This document shows, piece after piece, positions 3,344 to 36,655 of a stretch of DNA of 64,000 nucleotides (the stretch's first letter is position 1; every line of letters begins with the position of its first letter). The DNA is taken from assembly GCF_053078305.1 (NCBI RefSeq), contig NZ_CP166879.1. The stretch is one strand, 5' to 3'. Under the pieces are notes generated by a model that was not told where the DNA came from, did no database searches, and saw nothing but the letters and a program-made list of their open reading frames with translations. The position numbers and the translations under genes are program-made.

Positions 3344-5233
3344 ATGGCTGAATTCGAAACCACTTTTGCAGATCTGGGCCTGAAGGCTCCTATCCTTGAA
3401 GCCCTTAACGATCTGGGTTACGAAAAACCATCTCCAATTCAGGCAGAGTGTATTCCACATCTGCTGAATGGCCGCGACGTTCTGGGTATGGCCCAGACGG
3501 GGAGCGGAAAAACTGCAGCATTCTCTTTACCTCTGCTGCAGAATCTTGATCCTGAGCTGAAAGCACCACAGATTCTGGTGCTGGCACCGACCCGCGAACT
3601 GGCGGTACAGGTTGCTGAAGCAATGACGGATTTCTCTAAACACATGCGCGGCGTAAACGTGGTTGCTCTGTACGGCGGCCAGCGTTATGACGTGCAATTA
3701 CGCGCCCTGCGTCAGGGGCCGCAGATCGTTGTCGGTACTCCGGGCCGTCTGCTGGACCACCTGAAACGTGGCACTCTGGACCTCTCTAAACTGAGCGGTC
3801 TGGTTCTGGATGAAGCTGACGAAATGCTGCGCATGGGCTTCATCGAAGACGTTGAAACCATTATGGCGCAGATCCCGGAAGGTCATCAGACCGCTCTGTT
3901 CTCTGCAACCATGCCGGAAGCGATTCGTCGCATTACCCGCCGCTTTATGAAAGAGCCGCAGGAAGTGCGCATTCAGTCCAGCGTGACTACCCGTCCTGAC
4001 ATCAGCCAGAGCTACTGGACTGTCTGGGGTATGCGTAAAAACGAAGCACTGGTACGTTTCCTGGAAGCGGAAGATTTTGATGCGGCGATTATCTTCGTTC
4101 GTACCAAAAATGCGACTCTGGAAGTGGCTGAAGCTCTTGAGCGTAACGGCTACAACAGCGCCGCGCTGAACGGTGACATGAACCAGGCGCTGCGTGAGCA
4201 GACACTGGAACGCCTGAAAGATGGTCGTCTGGACATCCTGATTGCGACCGACGTTGCAGCCCGTGGCCTGGACGTTGAGCGTATCAGCCTGGTGGTTAAC
4301 TACGATATCCCGATGGATTCTGAGTCTTACGTTCACCGTATCGGTCGTACCGGTCGTGCGGGTCGTGCTGGCCGCGCGCTGTTGTTCGTTGAGAACCGCG
4401 AGCGTCGTCTGCTGCGCAACATTGAACGTACTATGAAGCTGACTATTCCGGAAGTAGAACTGCCGAACGCAGAACTGCTGGGCAAACGCCGTCTGGAAAA
4501 ATTCGCCGCTAAAGTACAGCAGCAGCTGGAAAGCAGCGATCTGGATCAATACCGCGCACTGCTGAGCAAAATTCAGCCGACTGCAGAAGGTGAAGAGCTG
4601 GATCTCGAAACTCTGGCCGCCGCACTGCTGAAAATGGCACAGGGTGAACGTACTCTGATTGTTCCGCCTGATGCGCCGATGCGTCCGAAACGTGAATTCC
4701 GTGACCGTGATGACCGTGGTCCGCGCGATCGTAACGACCGTGGCCCGCGTGGCGACCGTGAAGATCGTCCGCGTCGTGAACGTCGTGATGTTGGTGACAT
4801 GCAGCTGTACCGCATTGAAGTGGGCCGCGATGATGGTGTTGAAGTTCGTCATATCGTTGGTGCGATTGCTAACGAAGGCGACATCAGCAGCCGTTACATC
4901 GGTAACATTAAGCTGTTTGCTTCTCACTCCACCATCGAACTGCCGAAAGGTATGCCGGGTGAAGTGCTGCAACACTTTACACGTACTCGCATTCTGAACA
5001 AGCCGATGAATATGCAATTACTGGGCGATGCACAGCCGCATACTGGCGGAGAGCGTCGTGGCGGTGGTCGTGGTTTCAGTGGCGAGCGTCGTGAAGGTGG
5101 TCGTAACTTCAGCGGTGAACGCCGTGAAGGTGGTCGTGGTGATGGTCGTCGTTTTAGCGGCGAACGTCGTGAAGGCCGCGCTCCGCGTCGTGATGACTCT
5201 ACCGGTCGTCGTCGTTTTGGTGGTGATGCGTAA
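3344..5233 (+). CDS. deaD: DEAD-box RNA helicase DeaD/CsdA, 629 aa
   Basis: Motifs [20 protein letters not shown] present; start set at MAEFETTF (ATG 3344) rather than the upstream ORF-track start; Arg/Gly-rich C-terminal tail. Confidence 0.94.
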
Positions 5234-18729: not shown

Positions 18730-18771
18730 CAGTGCCGAAGCGTTGCGGTAATCAAAACGCAACGTCTTCTT

Positions 18772-19863
18772 TTACCGCACGATGACGGTAATGGTGGCTG
18801 TGCCCTGAAATTTTCCTGTTTCCAGCTCTCCACCGACCAGATTAACTGGCCAGGCGCGCATATTGACGGTGCCATGCCCGGAAGGATCAACGGGAAGGAT
18901 ACCGTTCTGAAAAGGAATATTTGCAACTCCGCCGCCGAGATTTTCAATACGAATACCGACATCGGGCGCATTGTCTGAACTTCTTCGTCTGGCGACCAGG
19001 TTGTACTGGTCTACTACCCCAGTTGTACCGTCGATGCGCATTTGCAACGAGTTATTAATCTTTGAAGTATCACCACAGTCATAAGTGATATCAAAGTCTA
19101 CTGGAGTAAAACCGTCTGGCATGGCATTGCGGGTGGTAAACTTCTGACCATTGATGAATCCAAAATTAACCTTAATAACATCGCCCTGATTAATTTTGCA
19201 CGACTGTGGGGCGGTGAGATTTCCCTGTATCGATAACTTGACTAAATCATGGAAGTCACCTGTAGACGGGCTTCCCATTCCATCGACCCACGCGCCTTTA
19301 ATGACGGCAATATCCGTTTTCGGAATGGTCATCGAGCCGAGAAATGGCTTGGTGACATACAGGGTAAAGGTGGTATTTGCACCAATATTAACGGGTCCAT
19401 AACGAGACGTGTCACCCTGGCAAACACCCGTTTGGGTTGCAGCAGAATATACGGTGCTGCTTTTTATCTGTGTGAATCGGGTGTTAACAGAGACAACCTG
19501 GTCGGTTGTGAGTCCTGGAATGTCGTTTGCCTGTAATGTGGTTTTAATATCCAGGCTGTCATTGAGTTTGTAATATCCTGTCTGATGTCCAGTGGTGGTA
19601 AGTACGGGGCTGACCATATAGACAAGTTTAACTGCCTTACCCGCAGAGCAGGAACAGGCGTATTGCCAGTTAGTGCTACTTAGCGTTGCAGAGGTAAACT
19701 CCCGTCCTGTCACGTTATCTGTCTGGTTCACCGTAACATCATCAACCACACTGCTGTAATTTGTCGCACCGCTAGTGCTGTCGGCTCCACACCCTCCTGA
19801 GGAGGCATAAGCGCAGGATGTGGATATCAACAAAAGTCCTGTTATAAGAGGCGCTCTTTTCAT
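18772..19863 (-). CDS. yraK: fimbrial adhesin-like protein YraK, 363 aa
   Basis: Start set at MKRAPLITGLLLISTS signal peptide; last gene of yraHIJK operon. Confidence 0.82.
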   Translation of the reverse strand: MKRAPLITGLLLISTSCAYASSGGCGADSTSGATNYSSVVDDVTVNQTDNVTGREFTSATLSSTNWQYACSCSAGKAVKLVYMVSPVLTTTGHQTGYYKLNDSLDIKTTLQANDIPGLTTDQVVSVNTRFTQIKSSTVYSAATQTGVCQGDTSRYGPVNIGANTTFTLYVTKPFLGSMTIPKTDIAVIKGAWVDGMGSPSTGDFHDLVKLSIQGNLTAPQSCKINQGDVIKVNFGFINGQKFTTRNAMPDGFTPVDFDITYDCGDTSKINNSLQMRIDGTTGVVDQYNLVARRRSSDNAPDVGIRIENLGGGVANIPFQNGILPVDPSGHGTVNMRAWPVNLVGGELETGKFQGTATITVIVR

Positions 19864-19873
19864 TTTTTTATCC

Positions 19874-22390
19874 TTAATGGCACTGCGCTGTGCCTTGTAA
19901 TACAGAGGTTGTTGGTTCTGAATCCGGTGTACTAAAAGCAAACTGACATTGTTGATCTGCCTGATTTCCCCAGCGTACAGTCCAGCTTTGTGATTTACTC
20001 GATATCCCAGAGAGATATAGTATGCCGCCCTCATCGACGATACTTTGTTGCCCCGTATCATCGTTGCTGGCAAGAGCGCCAAAGGGCAACGGTTTACCGT
20101 TGCGATCGCTGACTGTAACAAGTACGCGATAACCGATATTGGCGTTGAAACGCGCCGCTACCATTGCACCTCTGCTGGGCACCACAAACTGTGTTGTTTG
20201 TTCAAGATCGACGTTATCGGGCAGCTGCGTAGTATCTACCGAGAGACGGTTTTCCTGATAAGTTGTGAGATAAGGAACCACTGCATAGCCAAAGGGATCG
20301 GTAGCAATCCCCGGATAGTTTTGTATCCTCACGCCAGATGCTCCGTTAGCATCGATAAGCGCAAAAGCGTTGCCCAGATATTGCGAGAGCGTCACGCCAT
20401 GAGGATGGATAACCACGCCGCCGGTAACGCCGTAATTGTATTGGCTGCTGTCATTACCGTAACTGTATCCGGCACTGAAGGTTCCATAAGGTGAACGGTA
20501 ACTGGCGTTCAGGCTACTGTTATGGTTGTTATCGTCATCCAGACTTTGTTCCAGGCTATAGCTCAGGCGACCATCATCCAGCAGTGAGCCATCAAGACGC
20601 ATTTCATGTTGGGTTGGGCGATCTTTCTGGCTGGTCATCTGATAGGAAACCCGGCTACGCGGTAACCAGCGTTCTAACGGAATACTGAGATTCAAAGAGA
20701 GTGCGCGGTCATTATTTTGATCAGTGTAGCGGCTGTATTGATAATTCAGGCTGTAACCAATTCCCCATTGCTGGCCGGAAACCCCAACAGAGATATTCCT
20801 GTTTTTCTCGTTATTGCCCCAATAGTCTTGCTGTGAACCGGAGGCATACAGACTTACCCCATCAAATATTGTCTGGCTGATGTTGAATTGAATTTCACTT
20901 TTTTGGCGACTGTTATAGTCCCAATTGCGGGTATTGGCTTCATCAAAACTAAAATAGCCATCGTTGGTATAGCGATAGTAGCTGACAGCGATATTGGTGT
21001 TGGTTTCCGGGATATCTTTGATGTACTGCGTACGCCATTGATAGCCATGAAAAGAGTGCTGGTTATCGAATTGGGTGTCAGCTCTGTTGATATCCATCGA
21101 CAACGCGCCCAGTGCGCCAAGTGTGCCGCCGATACCGATCCCCAGCGCATAATAATCTTCAGAACCGAGCAGGCCGCCATACAGCGTAAAAGTATTATTC
21201 AAACCATATATTGCCGTGGCTTCAGCAAATTCGGGTTCCTTGCTATCACTGTTTGCATCAGCGCGATAGCGTCCAGCGGTCGCGCTATACTTTAGATGCC
21301 CAGGTCGCTGCATCATGGGTAATGAAGAATAAGGCTGGATAAAGCGACGTTGTGTACCGTCACTTTCTTCAATCGTGACTTCTAAATCGCCGCTGTTGGA
21401 AGAGGGGTAGAGATCGTTAATTTCAAAGGCACCCGCTGGCACGTTGCTTTGATAGATCACATAACCATTTTGCCTGATAGTCACGATTGCACTACTGTTT
21501 GCGATACCGCGTACCGTTGGGGCAAATCCGCGCTGGCTGTTTGGCAACATATTATCGTCGGAAGCGAGTTGCACGCCAGTAAAGGTGTAGCTGGAAAAAA
21601 TACTGCCGCTGGTGGCGCTTTCTCCCAGAAGCAACTGAGACTTCAACGCCTTGATATCACGTTGTAAATAACTACTGATAGTGTTCCAGCTTGACGCCTG
21701 ATCGTTGCGTGTCCACGTAGAATAGTTACGTAATCGCCAGGGGCCAAAATTGGCACCATTTTGCATATTCAGGTACTGTCGTTGGCTACGATTGCCCTGG
21801 CGGTAACGGTTATCAGAACCTGTAAACGAGTAGTTGGTAAACAGCGTTGGTATACCATCGTCCCAACGAGAAGGGGAGACGTAACCTCTTGCATCACGGT
21901 ACAGTGCAATTTGGGGAATGCTCAAATTAAGTCGCTGATGATTGAAATCAAATTCAGCAGCTGTACCGGGAATGATTTGTTCAAGCGAGTTGATCACGCT
22001 ATCGTCATCTTTTTCAGCCAGCGCCGGGATTTCATCCACCTTAATACCCAGCTCACGTAGTTGTTCTACCGTAAACTGTGGCTGCAGAAGTTGCTCTGCA
22101 TTGGCGGTAAATGTAATTTTTTTCTGTGAAACCTTCTTTTTATTCAGCCAGATATCAACCTGATAAGTTCCTGGTAGTTGTGCGTATTTTTTTGAAAAAC
22201 GTGACAGATCGGTTGTTTGCATACCACTTTTTGTGGTTTCCAGCATAATGGGGTCGAAATAATACTCTTCGGCGTTAGCGGTAGTGCAAAGCATGCCGCT
22301 GCCAGTGAGCACCATCGGCAAACAGCGTTTGATAATGAGCGCTAACTGTTTCGGTGTGCGTTTATGTCCCTGGTGGTGTCGTTGTGGCAT
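19874..22390 (-). CDS. yraJ: fimbrial outer-membrane usher protein YraJ, 838 aa
   Basis: Large usher-family ORF, recognised. Confidence 0.9.
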   Translation of the reverse strand: MPQRHHQGHKRTPKQLALIIKRCLPMVLTGSGMLCTTANAEEYYFDPIMLETTKSGMQTTDLSRFSKKYAQLPGTYQVDIWLNKKKVSQKKITFTANAEQLLQPQFTVEQLRELGIKVDEIPALAEKDDDSVINSLEQIIPGTAAEFDFNHQRLNLSIPQIALYRDARGYVSPSRWDDGIPTLFTNYSFTGSDNRYRQGNRSQRQYLNMQNGANFGPWRLRNYSTWTRNDQASSWNTISSYLQRDIKALKSQLLLGESATSGSIFSSYTFTGVQLASDDNMLPNSQRGFAPTVRGIANSSAIVTIRQNGYVIYQSNVPAGAFEINDLYPSSNSGDLEVTIEESDGTQRRFIQPYSSLPMMQRPGHLKYSATAGRYRADANSDSKEPEFAEATAIYGLNNTFTLYGGLLGSEDYYALGIGIGGTLGALGALSMDINRADTQFDNQHSFHGYQWRTQYIKDIPETNTNIAVSYYRYTNDGYFSFDEANTRNWDYNSRQKSEIQFNISQTIFDGVSLYASGSQQDYWGNNEKNRNISVGVSGQQWGIGYSLNYQYSRYTDQNNDRALSLNLSIPLERWLPRSRVSYQMTSQKDRPTQHEMRLDGSLLDDGRLSYSLEQSLDDDNNHNSSLNASYRSPYGTFSAGYSYGNDSSQYNYGVTGGVVIHPHGVTLSQYLGNAFALIDANGASGVRIQNYPGIATDPFGYAVVPYLTTYQENRLSVDTTQLPDNVDLEQTTQFVVPSRGAMVAARFNANIGYRVLVTVSDRNGKPLPFGALASNDDTGQQSIVDEGGILYLSGISSKSQSWTVRWGNQADQQCQFAFSTPDSEPTTSVLQGTAQCH

Positions 22391-22419
22391 TCCCTGATGA
22401 CCTGTGTTTTTTATATTTG

Positions 22420-23115
22420 TTATTGCAGTGGACGAGTTTCTGTCCCGGAACTGCCGCCATAATCATTGATTGCAGCCCATTTCACGTTCTTTCCGCCAGA
22501 TGCAGGAAGTGGTAACTGTTTATGTTCTCCGGGCGCGATATATTCAATTTTGCTTGTGAGATCGGCTTTATCGACTGCCAGTCCGGCAAATACGACGTAA
22601 TATTCAGTTGGGTTATATATATTGAGTGAATGATCACTACGTTTAAATTCCAGTGATTTCCACGCATCGCTTACCCGTCCCTTCAGGTGTGCGGGGCGAT
22701 AAAACATTTTGATCCGTGTTTTAAATACCAGCGTCAACTCGTTAGCATTAACATCATCTGATTTTTTCTTTGCTGGAATGGCACGAACATTAATGTAGAA
22801 CAGCGACTCTTTATTTTCAGGCAGGTTATCAGCTGTTTTAATAATTCGCAGTGATGAATCATCGCCAGCTTCAAGACGAAATAGCGGTGGGGTTATAATA
22901 AATGGGGCACGGCTTGTACCATCTATATTATCTACCCATGATTGCAGTAAATAAGGTGTTTCTGCGCCTTTGTTTGCGACAGGTAACGCAGCCTCTTTGC
23001 GGCTGGCATCATAGATCACTCGCGTTCGCTGTAAAACGATACCCCCTGCAAGCGCCTGGCCGATACAGAAGCTACACAACAAGGTAAATATCACCGCGAA
23101 TGTTCGTTTTGACAT
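22420..23115 (-). CDS. yraI: periplasmic fimbrial chaperone YraI (PapD-like), 231 aa
   Basis: ORF recognised. Confidence 0.9.
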
Positions 23116-23194
23116 AGTTATTTTTCAACCTGATACAACGAGAAAGAGGAAGGAAAAGGGCGTTATCTGAAAGGTCAGATAACGCCGTAACGTA

Positions 23195-23779
23195 TTAACG
23201 GTAATCCAGCGTTACGTTAACGACAGCGTCTGCTTCCCCTGGGGTGATTTCGGATGCTTCAACGGTTGATACGTAGTAAGCGATGAGGTCAACATTGACA
23301 ATTCCAGCGGAGTCCGCAGGGATCTGATAAACCGTGTTATCATTGCCCATAGCATTTAGTGGCATAAGGTTTCCGCTTTCCGCATCGTCAATACGGATAC
23401 CCACACCTGTTGCAGCTGTGCCAGCAAAAGAGCCCACTTTTGCCAAGTTAGGGAAGTTAGGGACGGTACCATTATCCCGCGTTTCCAGCCATAAACGGAA
23501 AGACGCTTCAACGTTGCCGTTATCGTGCTCCCACCCAGTCACTGGGCAGTTAACTAAAGGAATAGTGAATGGAATTTTTGGGCTACGATCGCCAACAGAA
23601 CGAAACTGTTCGGCATTATAGTGACCAAGAGCAACTTCAATTTTCTTATCAGAGTCATTGATTTCACAAGCGGATTTTAAAATCTCGCCATCAAAAACTA
23701 TTTCACCATCGGTTGCAGCGGCATTACCTGCGAAAAGCGCAAGTAAGCCCGCAATAGCTGTTTTTGTAACTTTATTCAT
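23195..23779 (-). CDS. yraH: fimbrial major subunit-like protein YraH, 194 aa
   Basis: Signal peptide and fimbrial subunit-like sequence. Confidence 0.87.
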   Translation of the reverse strand: MNKVTKTAIAGLLALFAGNAAATDGEIVFDGEILKSACEINDSDKKIEVALGHYNAEQFRSVGDRSPKIPFTIPLVNCPVTGWEHDNGNVEASFRLWLETRDNGTVPNFPNLAKVGSFAGTAATGVGIRIDDAESGNLMPLNAMGNDNTVYQIPADSAGIVNVDLIAYYVSTVEASEITPGEADAVVNVTLDYR

Positions 23780-23829
23780 TTATAACCTTATCCTTGTAAC
23801 AAGTACATAATCATATTTAATGTGAATAT

Positions 23830-24140
23830 ATGTTCAACATCTTTAAAGATTATACAGGTGGAAATATTTCATTGAACATTAAATAGACTAAACTTTAAGA
23901 TTATATTTATATGCAAATATTTTATGTTTTTATTATATTGATATGAATTTTCTATGTGTTAAAAAGAGTATAAATGCCTGACTTTGCTGGGCCAAGGGGC
24001 GAGTCAGAATACGAGATGGTTTATTAATAGAACAAGTTATATGTATATCTAAAATTAAATTGTTGAACATAACTCCTTTTGCTATTGGCGTTATGTTCAA
24101 CCCAGTCAAATGTTATTTAATATAATGCGTGACTGTTGAA
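23830..24140. promoter_or_regulatory. array of ATGTTCAA/TTGAACAT motifs in AT-rich yraH upstream region
   Basis: Four full copies (about 23831, 23871, 24061, 24093) plus a partial copy (about 24133), in both orientations. Confidence 0.5.
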
Positions 24141-24179
24141 TAAGTTAATTTAAACATTTTGAGCAAATTTTTCATCTGA

Positions 24180-24935
24180 TTAGGTATTAATTAAACAAAT
24201 AAAGTTACTGTGCAGCCACAAAAACGAAGCCGGGATAGAGGTAGAGACTTTAGCCGTGAGAAAACGTTCTGTCGCATCCTGCTTTCCTTCGCCAGTCACC
24301 AGTAACAAAACCTCGCGGGCATTGAGAATATCCTTCAGGCCTAAGGTGATCCCACGAGTCACGGGGCGGCCCGCGGTTTTTAACATCTCATGTTGCTGTG
24401 TTCTGGCATCAAGTTGACTGATATGGCAGGCCGGTTGCAGGTTTTCTCCCGGTTCGTTCAGCCCAAGATGACCGTTTTTCCCCAATCCGAGAACGCATAA
24501 ATCCAGACCGCCTTTGCGCGCAATCAGGTTCGTTACCCGTTCGCACTCTGTCTCATTTATCTCTTCGGAGCGAAAGCTGATGAGCTGGTCTTCACGTAGC
24601 CCCAGCGGCTGCACGATATGCTGTTGCAGGAAAGTTTCGCAGGTGCCAGGCATCGTTAATGGCAGATCCACCCATTCGTCGAGCTTGACGATGGTCAGTT
24701 GGCTGACATCAACCTGCTGCTGGTGGATTTTTTCTACCAGATAATGATACGTCAGTAATGGCGTCGCTCCGGTCGGCAGGCAAATCACGGCATCCGGTTT
24801 ACTACGGATCACGGCCAATAAATATTCGCTGGCACGTTCACTTAACGCTGTATAGTTTTCAACTTGCTGAAGGGTTTGCACAGGATGAAATTCCTTAAGT
24901 AAAGAGGCACCGCCAGACGCAGTGCCTCGTTCCAT
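24180..24935 (-). CDS. agaI: galactosamine-6-phosphate deaminase/isomerase AgaI, 251 aa
   Basis: NagB-like sequence, recognised. Confidence 0.9.
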   Translation of the reverse strand: MERGTASGGASLLKEFHPVQTLQQVENYTALSERASEYLLAVIRSKPDAVICLPTGATPLLTYHYLVEKIHQQQVDVSQLTIVKLDEWVDLPLTMPGTCETFLQQHIVQPLGLREDQLISFRSEEINETECERVTNLIARKGGLDLCVLGLGKNGHLGLNEPGENLQPACHISQLDARTQQHEMLKTAGRPVTRGITLGLKDILNAREVLLLVTGEGKQDATERFLTAKVSTSIPASFLWLHSNFICLINT

Positions 24936-29264: not shown

Positions 29265-29400
29265 CGTTGTCGCTTTCGCTTACCTTTCGTTTCATTTCAC
29301 TTGGTGATGTCTTTCGTTGATTAAAATCTATAGAAAAGAAATCGAAAGTTCAATGGAGAAAAAGGAAATAAAACGAAATCTGTGATCATTGAAAGAAAAG
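29265..29400. promoter_or_regulatory. agaS promoter region with clustered CTTTCG/CGAAAG motifs (candidate AgaR operators)
   Basis: cgctttcgcttacctttcgtttcatttcac, gtctttcgttga, atcgaaagtt, aaacgaaatc read from sequence; matches the CTTTC-rich AgaR site pattern. Confidence 0.6.
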
Positions 29401-29449
29401 ACAAGGGAAGATTAAAGAATTGCGTAATGACGTCGCTATGTTCACCGAT

Positions 29450-29505
29450 TGCCGGATGCGGCGTATCGTAGGTCGGATAAGACGCGTTAGCGTCGCATCC
29501 GACAC
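29450..29505. repeat. REP element between agaA and agaS
   Basis: gccggatgcggcgtatcgtaggtcggataagacgcgttagcgtcgcatccgaca. Confidence 0.7.
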
Positions 29506-29579
29506 CGCTGCACAGATCAAAAAGAAAGAAAAAGAAAGGCCTTACGGGGGAAGTGAAGGCCCAATAAAGGAGCAAACCA

Positions 29580-30713
29580 TCAAAACGAAGCTAATTGACC
29601 CTGAATCCAGATTTGTTGCACATGTAGCCCGCTATCCAGCGCAACGACGCTGGCGCGTTTGCCCGGTTTAAGCGATCCCAGAACACCATCAACACCCAGC
29701 ATTCGCGCCGGATGCAGCGACGCCATATGAATGGCTTCCGCAGGCGTTACGCCCGTCAACTCGACCATATTGCGCACTGCCGCATCAACAGACAGCGTAC
29801 TGCCCGCCAGCCCACCGGACGCGGTACGGACAACGCCACCGTGCATCTGCACTTCTTCACCACATAACGTATAGCGACCATCCGGCATCCCAGCTGCCTG
29901 CATCGCGTCGGTGATCAGTACGATTCTCTCTTTCGCACAGCAACAACACAGCGACATCGCCGCCGGATGCACATGATGACCATCGGCTATCAGTTCCAGC
30001 CAGGCGCGCTTGTCCGTTAATCCCGCGCCAACCATTCCCGGTTCGCGGTGATGTAAACCTGTCATCCCGTTATAGCAATGCACCAGGCCGTCGGCACCAG
30101 CATCAAACGCGGCGCGAGTTTGTTGCCAGGTCGCCGCGCTATGCCCCAGCATCACTCGTACATTTTGCTGTTTAAGATGGCGGATGGCCTGCAATGCCCC
30201 CTCTTTTTCCGGTGCCAGCGCTACCACGCGTAAGGTGTGCTGAGAAACGGCAATCAATTGATCCAGCTCGGCAATTTCAAGCTCGCGAAACAACTCCGGC
30301 GGATGCGCGCCTTTATTCTGCGGCGTGAAGTACGGTCCTTCGAGATAACTCCCCAGCACTTGCGCACCAGGTCCGCCGCGTTGGCAACGTTGAGCAATAC
30401 GTTTCAGCGCCGCATGAATGGTGTTAAGCGGCGCGGTTACGGTAGTCGGCAACCAACTGCCGACACCTTCGCGTGCCTTGTGCATTGCCAGCTTGTCGAG
30501 CACATCCGGCGCGTCATCCATTACATCAACGCCCGCACCACCGTGTACATGGGTGTCGATGTAAGCGGGGCAGAGCAGTTCCGCATCGCGTTCAGTCACG
30601 CCCACTGGAATCGGTTCGATTGCTGCGATGACACCGTCAGCAATACGCAACTGATGGTCATCGAGCCATCCCTCTTCAGTCAGCAGCCTTCTGGCGCGCA
30701 GAACGTGTGTCAT
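29580..30713 (-). CDS. agaA: N-acetylgalactosamine-6-phosphate deacetylase AgaA, 377 aa, intact
   Basis: Full-length NagA-like ORF; start set at MTHVLRARRLLTEEG. Confidence 0.87.
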   Translation of the reverse strand: MTHVLRARRLLTEEGWLDDHQLRIADGVIAAIEPIPVGVTERDAELLCPAYIDTHVHGGAGVDVMDDAPDVLDKLAMHKAREGVGSWLPTTVTAPLNTIHAALKRIAQRCQRGGPGAQVLGSYLEGPYFTPQNKGAHPPELFRELEIAELDQLIAVSQHTLRVVALAPEKEGALQAIRHLKQQNVRVMLGHSAATWQQTRAAFDAGADGLVHCYNGMTGLHHREPGMVGAGLTDKRAWLELIADGHHVHPAAMSLCCCCAKERIVLITDAMQAAGMPDGRYTLCGEEVQMHGGVVRTASGGLAGSTLSVDAAVRNMVELTGVTPAEAIHMASLHPARMLGVDGVLGSLKPGKRASVVALDSGLHVQQIWIQGQLASF

Positions 30714-31144
30714 ATCCCTTCCTCGACCGGACATTCTTCATGGCAGCGGCCTAACTCGTCCACCAGACTGGTCAGCCCACGATGTCCACACTCCAGCGCC
30801 TGTACACGGAATTCTTCACCGCTTAACCCTTCGCGCTCCAGCACCATCTCCAGTAGCAGTTGCAAATTGGTGCCGGTGATCACTTCACAGCCCGGTTTTT
30901 GCATCGCCAGCGTTGAAGCTACGCGAAACGGCGTGCCGCCCAGCAAATCCGTCAGAAAAACAATGCCGTCTTCACAATCCAGTTGGGCGATGGCCTCTTC
31001 AAGCTGCGATGTAAGCAGCGCGGTGCTTGAGGTTTCCGGAAAATCGATGGCGATAAACTGCGATTGCTCACCGAGAATTTGCTTCATTGCTTTTTCCATG
31101 CCGCTGGCAAACCCGCCATGCCCTGTCAAAATAATACTTAACAT
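30710..31144 (-). CDS. agaF: PTS EIIA component AgaF, 144 aa
   Basis: Mannose-family IIA, recognised. Confidence 0.87.
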   Translation of the reverse strand: MLSIILTGHGGFASGMEKAMKQILGEQSQFIAIDFPETSSTALLTSQLEEAIAQLDCEDGIVFLTDLLGGTPFRVASTLAMQKPGCEVITGTNLQLLLEMVLEREGLSGEEFRVQALECGHRGLTSLVDELGRCHEECPVEEGI

Positions 31145-31161
31145 CTAATACCTCATTGTAT

Positions 31162-32046
31162 TTAAAGGAAATGGCAGAATTTACCGACGATGCCGAGAAC
31201 CACGGTAACTGCAATCAGACGCAGCGGACTCCAGCCGCGGCGTACCAACCAAAACATGGTCAGGGTGTAGACCAACGGTAAGAAGGCAGGCATCAGTTTG
31301 TCGATAACATCAGCCTGTAACTTAACCACTGCGTCGCCCGCTGTGATTTCCAGCGTGGTGCTTAAACGAACATAGGTTGCCACCAGCGCACCGATTACCG
31401 TCATCCCAACGATAGACGCAGCATGGCCGACTTTTTTGGTATTCGCTTTAATGAGTGGAATCGCCGCCACGCCCATGCGGTAAGCATAATGCGCCAGACC
31501 AAAACGCAGCCCCAGGTGGACCACGTTGAACAGCACAATAAAGACGACTGCGCCAAGAATGGAGCCTTGCAATGCCAGACTGGCTCCAATCCCGCCACAA
31601 ATCGGCAGTAGCGTTAGCCAGAACATTGCATCGCCAATCCCGCCGAGCGGCGCACCGACGGCAATTTTGGTGCTCTGAATACTGTTAACGTCCTGCTTAG
31701 AACGCTCCATCGCAAGGATAATGCCGATAACAAATGTCACCAGAAACGGATGGGTATTGAAGAAACCCATATGCCCCTTCATGGCGCGCGCCAGGTCGCG
31801 TTTATTAGTGTGGATCTTTTTCAGAGCAGGCAGCAGACCGTACAACCAGCCGGAAGCCTGCATACGTTCGTAGTTAAAAGACGCTTGTAACAGCATGGAA
31901 CGCCAGGCGACGCGATTGATATCTTTTTTCGTCAGCTCCGCGCCAATGCTCTGATCTTCATACACATTTTCATTGACGCCAGTCAGCAATGTTTCTTCGT
32001 TTTCACTGACGTTCGGCAGGGTGGTTTGATTAGATGCCATCTTCAA
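31162..32046 (-). CDS. agaE: PTS N-acetylgalactosamine-specific EIID component AgaE (about 292-294 aa)
   Basis: Paralogous to agaD; exact start among the first three codons uncertain. Confidence 0.86.
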   Translation of the reverse strand: MKMASNQTTLPNVSENEETLLTGVNENVYEDQSIGAELTKKDINRVAWRSMLLQASFNYERMQASGWLYGLLPALKKIHTNKRDLARAMKGHMGFFNTHPFLVTFVIGIILAMERSKQDVNSIQSTKIAVGAPLGGIGDAMFWLTLLPICGGIGASLALQGSILGAVVFIVLFNVVHLGLRFGLAHYAYRMGVAAIPLIKANTKKVGHAASIVGMTVIGALVATYVRLSTTLEITAGDAVVKLQADVIDKLMPAFLPLVYTLTMFWLVRRGWSPLRLIAVTVVLGIVGKFCHFL

Positions 32047-32809
32047 ATTCCTCTTTCTGTGCCGCAGGTTGAGTCGGTTCAGGAGATTTACGCAGCAGAT
32101 CGATCAGCGCCATCGCCAGCGCGGCGGCAGCAATAGCCAGCACCGGTAACTTGAGCCAGGCTGCGGCAACAAAGCCCAGGATGAAGTAGGGGATGTAGAC
32201 GTTTTTCATCATGATTTTCAGCAGCACGGCAAAACCGATTGCTGGCATGATGCCGCCCGCGACGCCGAGGCCGTCGATTAATCGTTGCGGCAGGACATCA
32301 ATGATGGTTTTTGCATGTTCCGCGCCGAAGTAGATAGGCAGGAAAGCGCAGAGAAAATAGAAAGTGCCGAGTGCCAGCAGTGCCAGATAGTTTACGCGTT
32401 CAATGCCGCGAGTATCGGCGTTCTCCGCCATCCGGTCGCAGCGAGACATCACGCCAGACATCACCGAGAACAGGAAGGTAATCCCCATCTGTACTGCGAC
32501 AGCGAAAGGTACGGCGACACCGACTGCGACATCGGGTTTCACGCCAGTAGTAATGGCAAACGCCGTGCCGACGATAGTACCGATAATCACGTTAGGCGGC
32601 TGTGCGCCCGCCAGCGGGGCCAGCCCCATCCACACCAGTTCCAGCGTACCGCCGGTTAAAATACCGGTATGCAGATCGCCAAGTACCAGCCCGACTAACG
32701 GGCCGAGGACCACCGGGCGGTGCATATGGGTTAAGCCGTTAAACATATCCAGGCCAGCGATAAAGGCGATAATGCCCAACGCGAATGCCTGCAACAGACT
32801 GATTTCCAT
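32030..32809 (-). CDS. agaW: PTS N-acetylgalactosamine-specific EIIC component AgaW, 259 aa, intact
   Basis: Paralogous to agaC. Confidence 0.87.
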   Translation of the reverse strand: MEISLLQAFALGIIAFIAGLDMFNGLTHMHRPVVLGPLVGLVLGDLHTGILTGGTLELVWMGLAPLAGAQPPNVIIGTIVGTAFAITTGVKPDVAVGVAVPFAVAVQMGITFLFSVMSGVMSRCDRMAENADTRGIERVNYLALLALGTFYFLCAFLPIYFGAEHAKTIIDVLPQRLIDGLGVAGGIMPAIGFAVLLKIMMKNVYIPYFILGFVAAAWLKLPVLAIAAAALAMALIDLLRKSPEPTQPAAQKEEFEDGI

Positions 32810-32819
32810 GATGAATCCC

Positions 32820-33293
32820 TCAAAGTAATTTAAAGAGGTCCACAGCAGGCTCTGTCGGGACGCCCTGAACGAAGCATTCCACCCCAGCGGCTTTCAGGTC
32901 GTTAAATGCTGCGATATCGCCCGCATCCACAGAAACCGTTTTGGCGATTTGTTGCTTGCCATTGGCGTAGTGCATATTGCCAACGTTAATGCGATTCACC
33001 GGAACGCCACCTTTCACCAGCGTCAGGAAATCGGCGGGTGTTTTACAAACCAGCAGGATTTTCTGTCGATCGGCGGCGCGATGAATGTTGTCGATAACTT
33101 TTTGCAGCGTCCAGAAACGTACGGCGATCCCTTCTGCCAGTACCATTTCCATCAGGTTTTGTTGTACCGGATCTTCGGCAACCTCATCGTTGGCTACCAG
33201 CACCAGATTTGCCCCCGCAAATCCGACCCACTGAACGCCGACCTGACCGTGAATCAAGCGTTCATCAATCCGGCTTAAAACAATATTTGGCAT
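32820..33293 (-). CDS. agaV: PTS N-acetylgalactosamine-specific EIIB component AgaV, 157 aa
   Basis: Start set at MPNIVLSRIDERLIHGQ. Confidence 0.87.
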   Translation of the reverse strand: MPNIVLSRIDERLIHGQVGVQWVGFAGANLVLVANDEVAEDPVQQNLMEMVLAEGIAVRFWTLQKVIDNIHRAADRQKILLVCKTPADFLTLVKGGVPVNRINVGNMHYANGKQQIAKTVSVDAGDIAAFNDLKAAGVECFVQGVPTEPAVDLFKLL

Positions 33294-33315
33294 AGCGTGT
33301 TCCTCTTTGTTTTGC

Positions 33316-34596
33316 TTATTGGCCTTCACAGGCTGTGTGGTACTGCGCCAGGATGTCCTGAATATGGTTGATAATGAGTTCCCGTGGCGTTGGCTGCAGC
33401 TCGCCGGAGCGAACTTTCACGTACTGCAGCGGCAGATACTGGCTGATCAGCGGCAGCGGAATCGGTGAATCCGCCAGATTACGTACCAGATGAGCGAAAG
33501 CGTCATCAATCTGGCTGTCCGGCCAGTAATAGCGCACGCGATCCGAGTAGCTATAACCACGCGCCAGACGACGCGCGTTGCCGTCACCGTGGTAGTGGCT
33601 TTGCCAGTATTCCGGGCGGTCGAGCATCACGTTTTCCAGCACCTGACGCAGACCAGAACAGGCTTTTGCTGGCACCAGTTCTTCTTCAATCGCTGCCAGA
33701 GAGAACAGAGCTTCACGCAGGGCGAAGGTCAGCGCCGGGCCAACTTTCAGAATGGCAAAGTGGTCAATCACCAGCTGGCGCAGCGATTGCGGCGTTTGAT
33801 AATCGGTAGAGTGCGCTTCGAAAATCAGCGTTTCGTAGCTTTCGACCATCTGGCTTAAGGCGGTCGCTTTGGCGGGCTGATAATCAATAACGTTGGTGTG
33901 ATCGAATTCGACGCCGGGTTGAACCACCAGGGCAATGATGCGTGGCCAGATGGCATTCAAACCTTGCTTTTCAAAGGCGTGACGATGGGCTTCCAGCGTG
34001 GCGCGGGCGGCATCCGGCGTGGTGACCGCCAGCTCGCTTAAGGTTTCATGCGCGCCGCCAGGTACCGGCACTTCGGTACCAATGACATACTCCAGATCGG
34101 CTTCGCCAAAGTGTTCAAGACAGGTTTCTTCCGCCACTTTCGCCAGACGGGCGGCGCGTTCAGCCACGATGTCATCAGTTAAGGGAATCGGATCGTCCTG
34201 ACAGGACATGCTGCAATCAAGGTGGATTTTTTTGAATCCTGCCGCAACGTAGCTTTTAATCAAATCATCGGCATTGGCCATTGCCTGAGCGGCCGGCAGG
34301 TTTTGCCAGCGGTTCGGCCCCAGATGGTCACCACCCAGAATCAACGCATCCTGCGGGAAATTCAACGAGTCGGCGAGCTGACAAACAAAGCCGCGAAAAT
34401 CGGCGGGCGTCATTCCGGTATAACCGCCGAACTGGTCTACCTGATTGGAGGTTGCTTCAATCAGTAACGGCGTTTGGTTTGCACTGGCGTAGCGGATTGC
34501 AGCCTCCAGCACCAGCGGATGTGCGGAACAAACGGCATAAATTCCATTTGTTTTGCCCGCTTTGTGCTGTCTCACCATTTCTGTCAGATGTTTCAC
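33316..34596 (-). CDS. kbaZ: tagatose-bisphosphate aldolase non-catalytic subunit KbaZ (AgaZ), 426 aa
   Basis: ORF recognised. Confidence 0.9.
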
Positions 34597-34629
34597 TTTC
34601 CTCTCCAGTTCAGATTACTGCGATATTAA

Positions 34630-35654: not shown

Positions 35655-35708
35655 GAAAGGGTGCCCGCTGGTCAACACGAATGCGTTCGGCGGGCATTGT
35701 GAATACCA

Positions 35709-36173
35709 TCAATGGTTTTCTTCTGTCTCTTGGGTGAGGGTTTCCCAGTCGGCAGGAGGATGTCCTCTTTTTAACATTTTGCTGAATACGGTATAGGCAT
35801 CTGTTTTTTTACCGTAGGTGCGAAGAGTGTTTTCATCGTTCATCCATCCCAGAATGATGACTTTCTCTTTTTCACTATAACGAAAGAAGAGACGATAACG
35901 ACCAGCCCCAAATTTTACCCATGACCAGTCTTTATTTTTCCCTGAGCCTAACGACTTGCCATGACGGAATGCCGGTGATGATGGATTGACCGTGATATGC
36001 TCCTCAATCACTTTGTGAACTGCTGCCAATAACTTTGTGGCGGCATTTCTCTAATAATTTTCAGGATCTTTTCCCTTTAATGCCTCGACTTCGGCAACTA
36101 AAGCATCGTAGGTTTCCTGAAAACAGGGATGAGCATATAGCGCCCAACCATTAACCCTTTGTGGAAAATCCAT
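35709..36173 (-). pseudogene. yhaV: yhaV toxin gene (154-codon frame) interrupted by in-frame TAG at codon 41
   Basis: ATG at 36173 overlaps the prlF stop by 1 nt; frame reads MDFPQRVNGWALYAHPCFQETYDALVAEVEALKGKDPENY then TAG (36051-36053), then continues in the same frame through the recognisable YhaV C-terminus. Confidence 0.75.
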
Positions 36174-36508
36174 TATTCGTCGTCGCCAATCTCATCATCA
36201 ATGTTGACGTCCATGCCAGCGACAAGTTTCTTTCCTTGTTGAATGTCGAATGGACGAGTTTTTTGCGGGTTGTTCTGGATATCTGCATCCAGAAAACGCA
36301 AAAATGCATTCATAGTATGATCCTCCTGTTCATCTCCCAGTCGGCACATAAATACTTGCCCACCAGGCAGAATTTCGTAATGAATGTTGTCCAGGCCTGG
36401 CTTCAGTTTTAAGGCCTCACGCACTGGCGCGGGGATAGTTGTTTGTCCGCGTATCGTGACCTTTGATTCAGTGGTCAGTACAGCGTGAGAGCGAGCATTA
36501 GCGGGCAT
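36173..36508 (-). CDS. prlF: antitoxin PrlF (SohA), 111 aa
   Basis: Start set at MPANARSHAVLTTESKV; AbrB/SpoVT-type N-terminus and acidic C-terminus. Confidence 0.88.
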   Translation of the reverse strand: MPANARSHAVLTTESKVTIRGQTTIPAPVREALKLKPGLDNIHYEILPGGQVFMCRLGDEQEDHTMNAFLRFLDADIQNNPQKTRPFDIQQGKKLVAGMDVNIDDEIGDDE

Positions 36509-36605
36509 TAGGCACTGTACTTTTACAGCCTGTTTTCTGCTCAAATTATAAGCTTCAGCAAAGTAATGCAAATGCATTATTAATGGACGTGGGGGTTTTA
36601 AACAA

Positions 36606-36634
36606 TAAAAACATGGCACTAAGGCCATGTTTTG
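36606..36634 (-). terminator. intrinsic terminator downstream of garD
   Basis: Perfect 8-bp stem aacatggc / gccatgtt with 6-nt loop flanked by A- and T-runs. Confidence 0.7.
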
Positions 36635-36655
36635 CGAGGGACGTTCCAAAAGAAA

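Follow-up and report, generated by a model that had tools for sequence, protein, structure and literature searches.

Four copies of an 8-mer between agaI and yraH of Escherichia coli lie in a conserved stem-loop after agaI and in an allele-specific pair at the probable yraH promoter

Introduction

Is a short sequence that recurs four times in front of a cryptic fimbrial operon the operator array of a dedicated regulator, or do its copies belong to something else? We addressed this for the 400-bp spacer (23780..24179, minus strand, 26% G+C) that separates agaI (24180..24935, minus strand), the final gene of the aga operon, from yraH (23195..23779, minus strand), which opens the yraHIJK chaperone-usher operon, in a stretch of 64,000 nucleotides from contig NZ_CP166879.1, referred to below as the window. 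A preliminary description of this DNA had noted the 8-mer ATGTTCAA, or its reverse complement TTGAACAT, four times in the spacer with a partial fifth copy, and had proposed that they form an operator array in the yraH promoter.

The K-12 orthologue of the spacer (MG1655 3287026-3287425) is 96% identical to it and appears as agaI/yraH 3285165_325 in Table 1 of Panyukov and Ozoline (2013, PMC3661553), where it is one of 78 "promoter islands", regions that are crowded with promoter-like signals and nearly silent, that bind H-NS and that are tied to acquired genes. By genomic SELEX the agaI/yraH spacer contains sites for both RpoD holoenzyme and H-NS, and Shimada et al. proposed TTGATA-17-TCAAAT as the promoter of this RpoD-bound spacer (PMC3946193). 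Both sources list the K-12 orthologue as H-NS-bound. By the features that define promoter islands the spacer of the window would count as one, and H-NS is expected to bind it in this strain also. Overproduction of BolA raises yraH mRNA along with that of other cryptic fimbrial genes (PMC4337573). The searchable literature holds no account of the motif, of a hairpin, of a yra-specific regulator, of a mapped transcription start or RNA 3' end, or of an agaI terminator at this place.

Results

Copy number and arrangement of the 8-mer

Exact matches to the 8-mer were found in the spacer at 23830-23837 (plus strand), 23872-23879 (minus), 24063-24070 (minus) and 24093-24100 (plus), within 2 nt of the positions given for them before. 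They are four of the eight exact copies in the full 64-kb window, for which 3.2 would be expected. When the spacer was shuffled 5000 times with its dinucleotides preserved, this 8-mer never reached four copies (mean about 0.05), and it is over-represented against the local composition, as the sites of an operator array should be; some 8-mer or other reached four or more copies in 4.2% of these shuffles, so the significance after correction for the look-elsewhere effect is modest. A similar density in unrelated AT-rich DNA had been named as a finding that would weigh against an array, and it was not seen: 12.1 kb of control DNA with a G+C content of 32% or less, drawn from 320 kb, held five copies, four of them the spacer's own. 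The motif search across fimbrial promoters that had been suggested was also carried out, and none of 13 other K-12 fimbrial upstream regions (those of yadN, sfmA, ybgD, elfA, yehD, yehE, yfcV, ygiL, fimA, fimB, fimE, matA and ecpA) contained an exact copy. With the shuffles empty and both sets of controls nearly so, the claim that the copy number lies above chance holds; the enrichment of the 8-mer in the spacer is real and local, and is not generic to AT-rich or to fimbrial promoter DNA.

The partial fifth copy reported near 24133 does exist, at 24134-24143 on the minus strand (TGTTGAATAA in plus-strand letters), but it has two mismatches to the 8-mer and lies outside the feature described here. 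K-12 has TGTTACAT in its place, and most of the haplotypes sampled differ there as well. A pairing of this partial copy with one of the exact copies (site B below; 83% over 18 nt) was dropped for want of conservation in K-12.

The four exact copies make up two inverted pairs. Read in the agaI/yraH sense and counted in nucleotides from the agaI stop codon, the distal pair consists of site A (TTGAACAT, 80-87) and site B (ATGTTCAA, 110-117), and the proximal pair of site C (ATGTTCAA, 301-308) and site D (TTGAACAT, 343-350). Sites A, B and D have the 10-mer TATGTTCAAC in common, and a weak direct repeat of 25 nt, 72% identical and beginning with this 10-mer, joins sites D and A.

The distal pair is a stem-loop downstream of agaI

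The distal pair is an inverted repeat with 15-nt arms that are 93% complementary and 10 nt apart, and on the RNA level it is predicted to be a stem-loop (24062..24101, minus strand) that holds site A at 24093-24100 and site B at 24063-24070. Its 5' arm GTTGAACATAACGCC occupies 24101-24087, its loop 24086-24077 and its 3' arm GGAGTTATGTTCAAC 24076-24062, which puts it 80-120 nt 3' of the agaI stop codon and on the same strand as agaI. The fold has a predicted energy of -18.1 kcal/mol (z -3.8), which none of 200 shuffles equalled; it is the most stable local structure of the spacer and was retained when the entire spacer was folded. The stem is followed by a U-rich tail, AAUUUAAUUUUAG (24049..24061, minus strand), inside the block that is conserved in divergent alleles.

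A stable stem-loop in the transcript, on the sense strand and 3' of the gene that closes a transcription unit, is what an intrinsic terminator would show, but the stem is not G+C-rich: the core TTGAACATAA/TTATGTTCAA has two G-C pairs in ten, and the whole stem three to five among 14-15. The tail in the window, AAUUUAAUUUU, has six U in eight positions from offset 2, and its U-tract is broken by A residues. A scan for terminator-like structures missed the window hairpin because of its 10-nt loop. The A:B stem-loop is therefore not a canonical intrinsic terminator, having an A+U-rich stem and an interrupted U-tract. A search of Rfam gave only sub-threshold matches, to eukaryotic models, with E values of 0.58 or greater.

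The stem-loop is conserved in divergent alleles that adjoin agaI

Two divergent alleles, L017 (Escherichia sp. MOD1-EC7003) and L021/L022 (a rare E. coli allele), have a yraH-like gene directly after agaD-agaI. Their YraH proteins are only 53-54% identical to that of the window, and their spacers cannot be aligned with it or, in the promoter-proximal part, are about 68% identical. The L021-type allele was present in only two complete E. coli genomes, and no L017-type spacer was found among the complete E. coli genomes. Both alleles nevertheless retain TTGAACATAA...TTATGTTCA(A) at 50-90 nt past the agaI stop codon, and the hairpin is the sole block of the spacer that is conserved between the window and L021. 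Predicted energies of the L017 and L021 hairpins are -17.9 to -21.9 kcal/mol (z about -5), so that the three alleles together span -18 to -22 kcal/mol and z scores of -3.8 to -5.2. The terminator-like scan accepts the L021 hairpin with its tail, solely on the strand read in the aga sense, and rejects that of L017 for its U-tract.

The loops are unlike among the alleles (AAUAGCAAAA, UUCCCACU and CUUAAAAA), and each allele extends the common core differently: the window has an additional outer G-C pair and an inner CC/GG separated from the core by a single mismatch, L017 an outer AACA/UGUU and L021 an inner UUUCA/UGAAA. In every allele the stem comes to 14-15 bp. Among six distinct hairpin sequences the ten core pairs are invariant and three pairs are changed on both sides, a result matched by 6 of 500 shuffles; the double-sided changes are one of G-C to A-U and two of C-G to U-A, and they come from only three independent lineages. 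In the arms 19 of 20 columns are the same in all three lineages, compared with 46% of 80 flanking columns (binomial P = 5e-6).

Where a yraH-like operon stands without agaI upstream, as in C. braakii (L019/L020) and next to garD (L023-L026), neither the hairpin nor the motif was found. These comparisons show that the hairpin is there, that it is selectively conserved and that it goes with agaI as the neighbour, and as it is conserved and present only where agaI lies upstream, it belongs to the 3' flank of agaI and not to the promoter.

Three observations sit less easily with a purely structural hairpin. The invariance of the core pairs exceeds what pairing needs and would fit recognition by a sequence-specific protein also; the centre-to-centre spacing of A and B differs between alleles by 10 bp (20 versus 30 bp), a change that would keep the helical phase for a DNA-binding protein; and the same 10-mer at the promoter is left unexplained.

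The spacer as the edge of an inserted operon

The spacer was found in 3403 of 5426 complete E. coli genomes, as a single copy 95-98% identical to that of the window. In E. albertii and C. farmeri, which have no yra operon here, agaI and rsmI converge on about 50 bp that include a G+C-rich hairpin. The yra operon with its AT-rich leader is thus an insertion; this agrees with the published inference that the yra operon was acquired by the E/B1/A lineage (PMC6896753). The C-termini of AgaI are alike at the protein level to their ends, placing the junction at or just after the agaI stop codon. Following this insertion the aga operon of E. coli runs into inserted AT-rich DNA, where no strong structure precedes the A:B hairpin. 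The island contains only yraHIJK and no regulator gene, and no repeats common to its two ends were found.

All four copies of the 8-mer are invariant in six E. coli haplotypes. Long adjacent stretches are invariant too, and although there are no variable sites in the 32 motif columns against about 6% overall (P about 0.14, by hand calculation), the equal invariance of the neighbouring stretches means that a sample of six haplotypes cannot discriminate.

The proximal pair lies at the likely yraH promoter and is allele-specific

A TATAAT hexamer at 23849..23854 (minus strand), 69 nt before the yraH ATG, is likely to be the -10 element of the yraH promoter, judging from its sequence and place. 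A TATAAT stands 72-73 nt before the ATG in L017 and L021, and it is the only promoter element that is conserved in all three alleles. Site C (23872..23879, minus strand; ATGTTCAA in the yraH sense) ends 17 nt upstream of this hexamer and overlaps the position of the -35 element. Site D (TTGAACAT in the yraH sense, 23837-23830) starts 11 nt downstream of it, at about +4 to +12; 50 nt separate it from the yraH ATG, and it forms part of the perfect 11-bp palindrome ATGTTGAACAT (23830..23840, minus strand). In a second, alternative promoter-like site, TTGAAC-16-TATGAT (23837..23810), the -35-like hexamer is the TTGAAC of site D, and a further promoter-like site, TTCATA-17-TAAAAT (23919..23947, minus strand), is the counterpart of the TTGATA-17-TCAAAT of K-12. 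In total the spacer has four promoter-like sites and three TATAAT hexamers.

Unlike A and B, sites C and D are unlikely to pair in RNA, as a hairpin between them was not supported (z -1.07) and was not predicted in the full-spacer fold. Given the hairpin, two additional copies of an arm 8-mer appeared within the 282 nt on the promoter side in 27 of 20000 shuffles (0.14%), and this test, although post hoc, indicates that the presence of C and D is unlikely to be pure chance. The pair was absent from L017, L021, L019 and L023-L026, and at the relative place of D the sequence reads TGTTGAA in L021 and GATGTTA in L017. The preliminary description had taken lack of conservation of the motif upstream of orthologous yraH genes as grounds for giving up the array, and this applies to one half of it: C and D are missing from L017 and L021, and A and B are kept.

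One reading of these positions is that a single sequence-specific DNA-binding protein occupies all four copies as sites of the TATGTTCAAC type, with C and D occluding the -35 and +1 of yraH and A and B, some 230-260 bp upstream, assisting by looping in the manner of DeoR, GalR or GlpR. The sharing of the 10-mer by three copies and the perfect palindrome at D would suit such a protein, as would the placing of C and D at operator-like positions on either side of the conserved TATAAT and their spacing of 42 bp centre to centre (34 nt between them), which is four helical turns. The improbable reappearance of the arm sequence at the promoter, the core invariance beyond the needs of pairing and the exact 10-bp shift between A and B described above point the same way. 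Against this, the motif is missing from the 13 other fimbrial upstream regions and is not enriched elsewhere in the 64-kb window, which leaves it with no regulon. The island carries yraHIJK and no gene for a regulator, the extensions of the distal stem covary in the manner of a hairpin, and L017 and L021 lack the proximal pair yet keep the distal one, so that only the agaI-side pair is conserved in orthologous spacers. Consensus sequences of GlpR, DeoR, TorR, PhoP, CRP, FNR, ArcA, IHF, H-NS and Zur matched no better than they did shuffled sequence, and neither the genes of the island, the 13 fimbrial regions nor these consensuses supplied a cognate regulator or a regulon with the motif. The bet operator ATTGGACGTTCAAT resembles site C in one half-site only, and the 8-mer bears little resemblance to the CTTTC repeats of AgaR type at the agaS promoter. 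We therefore think it unlikely that one protein binds all four sites in this way; C and D by themselves may be an operator pair.

Fimbrial operons are the classic home of invertible promoter switches, and the spacer contains a perfect 11-bp inverted repeat, TATGTTCAACA, at 23829-23839 and 24061-24071, 221 nt apart and with promoter-like sites inside, so we considered whether a tyrosine recombinase acting in trans might flip the 221-bp segment between these repeats as at fimS. Queries representing the flipped B-D or A-C segment were matched in none of the 3403 genomes that have the spacer, every match being split in two places. No recombinase gene is present at the locus, where only agaI and yraHIJK are annotated, and L017 and L021 lack the proximal arm, the conserved TATAAT there lying outside the logic of the best inverted segment. 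An invertible promoter, in either flipped form, is thus essentially excluded.

It may instead be that nothing beyond the hairpin has a function, and that C and D are by-products of mutation, of local duplication or of A+T drift in an acquired promoter island, the TTGAAC being one among many -35-like hexamers of the spacer. This would be in keeping with the listing of the K-12 orthologue among the H-NS-bound promoter islands (PMC3661553), with the three TATAAT hexamers and four promoter-like sites, with the 4.2% of shuffles in which some 8-mer reaches four copies, with the weak 25-nt repeat between D and A, and with the allele specificity of C and D. It does not readily account for the rarity in shuffles of two further copies of the arm sequence, for the symmetry of C and D about the conserved -10, or for their invariance in all six E. 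coli haplotypes while bases 23859-23860 between them vary, and we doubt that it is the whole explanation.

Other candidates and samples were set aside. A dispersed repeat (REP, MITE or IS end) was rejected as the spacer is confined to a single place in each of 3374-3403 E. coli genomes and the island ends have no repeat in common. Matches to the hairpin pattern in viral contigs (53) and in metagenome contigs (at least 120) had no flank homology and no aga or yra genes, and are thus chance hits of a short AT-rich palindrome. A scan of genome contigs for YraH returned only a paralogue in Ewingella and a Xenorhabdus contig that is 95-98% E. coli DNA, neither giving information on conservation. 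The apparent YraH homologues at 65-71%, P0017 and P0020 (L010-L015), proved to be bisulfite-converted (C to T) E. coli assemblies and were discarded.

Discussion

We somewhat favour, at a little better than even confidence, a composite reading in which A and B are the stem-loop at the 3' end of the aga transcript and C and D form a distinct feature of the yraH core promoter that is allele-specific. Under this composite reading the stem-loop and its U-rich tract, which lie about 80 nt past the agaI stop codon where the yraHIJK island borders on agaI, would act in the aga transcript either by weak intrinsic termination or by blocking 3' exonucleases after termination. It would thereby separate the H-NS-silenced yra promoter region from aga read-through, or insulate it. 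The proximal pair is confined to the common E. coli allele. It could represent two operators, could supply extra -35-like TTGAAC hexamers to the promoter island, or could be the relic of a local duplication. The RNA-level role of the hairpin and any role of the proximal pair are what we infer from sequence comparison.

The proposal of an operator array in the yraH promoter is accordingly kept only in part. The repeats are non-random, but one pair is a hairpin on the agaI side, the other is not conserved, and neither a regulator nor a regulon was found. As it stands, the set of four copies is a fairly ordinary intergenic feature within a known promoter island and is not a demonstrated operator array. 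A different way of uniting the copies would be for all four to be sites of one factor, binding DNA or binding RNA on read-through transcripts, that couples the end of the aga operon to the yraH promoter. Were this so, whether the fimbriae are expressed would depend on aga transcription or on a dedicated silencer alongside H-NS, and the invariant hairpin core and its recurrence at the -35 and +1 would be two faces of one mechanism; we consider this quite improbable.

If the composite reading is right, the hairpin marks the border of a sugar-catabolic operon and an H-NS-silenced adhesin operon, and would show part of how the yra fimbrial island was domesticated in E. coli; it would also be a precise, mutable element for the control of read-through into a "cryptic" fimbrial operon. 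Sites C and D give a defined target for finding a yra-specific regulator. General principles would be unchanged by any of this, and a specialist would not be surprised.

Several known systems resemble the locus in part. With fimS it shares short perfect inverted repeats around a promoter-bearing segment upstream of a chaperone-usher operon, but unlike fimS it shows no flipped orientation in 3403 genomes and has no recombinase gene nearby. Looping repressors such as DeoR, GalR, GlpR and NagC likewise use repeated short, partly palindromic sites, with a pair at the promoter and a pair upstream; the spacer differs from their targets in having no cognate regulator, regulon or consensus match, in the lack of conservation of its proximal sites and in the hairpin-like nature of its distal ones. 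An intrinsic terminator or protective stem-loop would be expected to show, as the distal pair does, a stable sense-strand hairpin after the last aga gene, a U-rich stretch and compensatory changes, whereas the long A+U-rich stem, the broken U-tract (missing from one allele) and core arms that are invariant beyond complementarity are unlike an intrinsic terminator. Other fimbrial promoter islands, those of yadN, sfmA, ybgD and elfA, are without the 8-mer and differ from the spacer in this. The spacer is like the H-NS promoter islands in being AT-rich, in having several promoter-like sites and in fronting an acquired operon, and its K-12 orthologue is itself one of those listed; the exact 8-10-mer in four copies and the selectively conserved hairpin are features that the promoter-island concept would not have predicted, and they set this island apart from it.

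Insertion site and integrity of the yra operon

In Escherichia albertii and Citrobacter farmeri, agaI and rsmI are convergent and separated by a gap of about 50 bp which contains a G+C-rich hairpin (L027 3769-3817 and L032 3221-3272), while in the window approximately 5.4 kb, comprising yraHIJK and the AT-rich spacer, lies between the two genes (18730-24180). A hairpin (GCGTTGCG...CGCAACG) is found at about 18741-18765, at the rsmI/yraK end of this island, and no terminal repeats were found at the island ends in the window. In two further loci (NZ_CP134353.1 and NZ_CP101615.1), IS1 insertions and rearrangements break the yra operon or delete the promoter-proximal part of the spacer, and such damage in some isolates fits with the operon being dispensable.

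Variation in the agaI-yraH spacer

The spacer haplotype of the window is rare: just 26 of the 5426 genomes match it at 99% identity or above, the closest being strain PapRG-04-4, which is of baboon origin. Between its conserved hairpin and its promoter-like sites the spacer has a single patch that is richer in G+C, and this patch holds a further terminator-like hairpin, weaker than the first, on the minus strand at 23977-23996 (CTGACT...AGTCAG region, tail CAUUUAUACUCUUUUU). Several of the positions that vary between E. coli haplotypes fall within this second hairpin. In a gallium-evolved line, the agaI/yraH spacer has been reported to carry a C-to-T mutation at low frequency, at K-12 position 3,287,319, 107 nt before yraH (PMC6928379). 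The classic 7-bp tandem repeat of prlF, (TTCAACA)2 (PMC6928379), in the prlF-yhaV region (window about 35700-36650), shares part of its sequence with the motif core GTTCAACA, an overlap that looks coincidental.

The corresponding spacer of L021, a rare E. coli allele with a divergent yraH-like gene, is 1047 bp long and carries debris of other loci at L021 2146-2526. Part of it matches, at 84% identity, the 3' end of a small gene together with its terminator; in L023, a yraH-like operon adjoining garD, this gene lies upstream of yraH. Short fragments of agaB and agaD are also present, and the spacer has a canonical terminator at L021 2323-2346, made up of AGGCAGATAATTAATTATCTGCCT and a T-run after it. 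These features are scars of rearrangement at the agaI-yraH junction.

Spurious relatives of YraH

Two apparent YraH homologues with 65-71% identity, P0017 and P0020, were rejected, as their source assemblies read nearly every C as T relative to E. coli. The reads behind their loci (L010-L015, from Logan assemblies SRR3359617, ERR3578265, ERR3578270, SRR27475780, SRR27475582 and SRR24798472) had been bisulfite-converted before assembly and gene calling, which puts false "divergent" proteins into the protein collection. The yraH-yraI DNA on a 2233-bp contig of Xenorhabdus szentirmaii DSM 16338 (NZ_NIBV01000010.1), 95-98% identical to window 22560-23454, is most likely E. coli contamination of that assembly and not a Xenorhabdus gene.

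The aga cluster

The aga cluster is intact in this strain (29580-34600), with a full-length agaA-like ORF of 384 amino acids at 29580-30734 and more ORFs upstream, whereas the K-12 relative has a truncated agaA and PTS pseudogenes. The region upstream of agaS (29300-29560, minus strand) includes a REP-like palindrome rich in G+C (gatgcgacgctaacgcgtcttatccg...cgcatccggc) and is packed with CTTTC / TTTCGTTT-type repeats, a pattern expected of AgaR operators.
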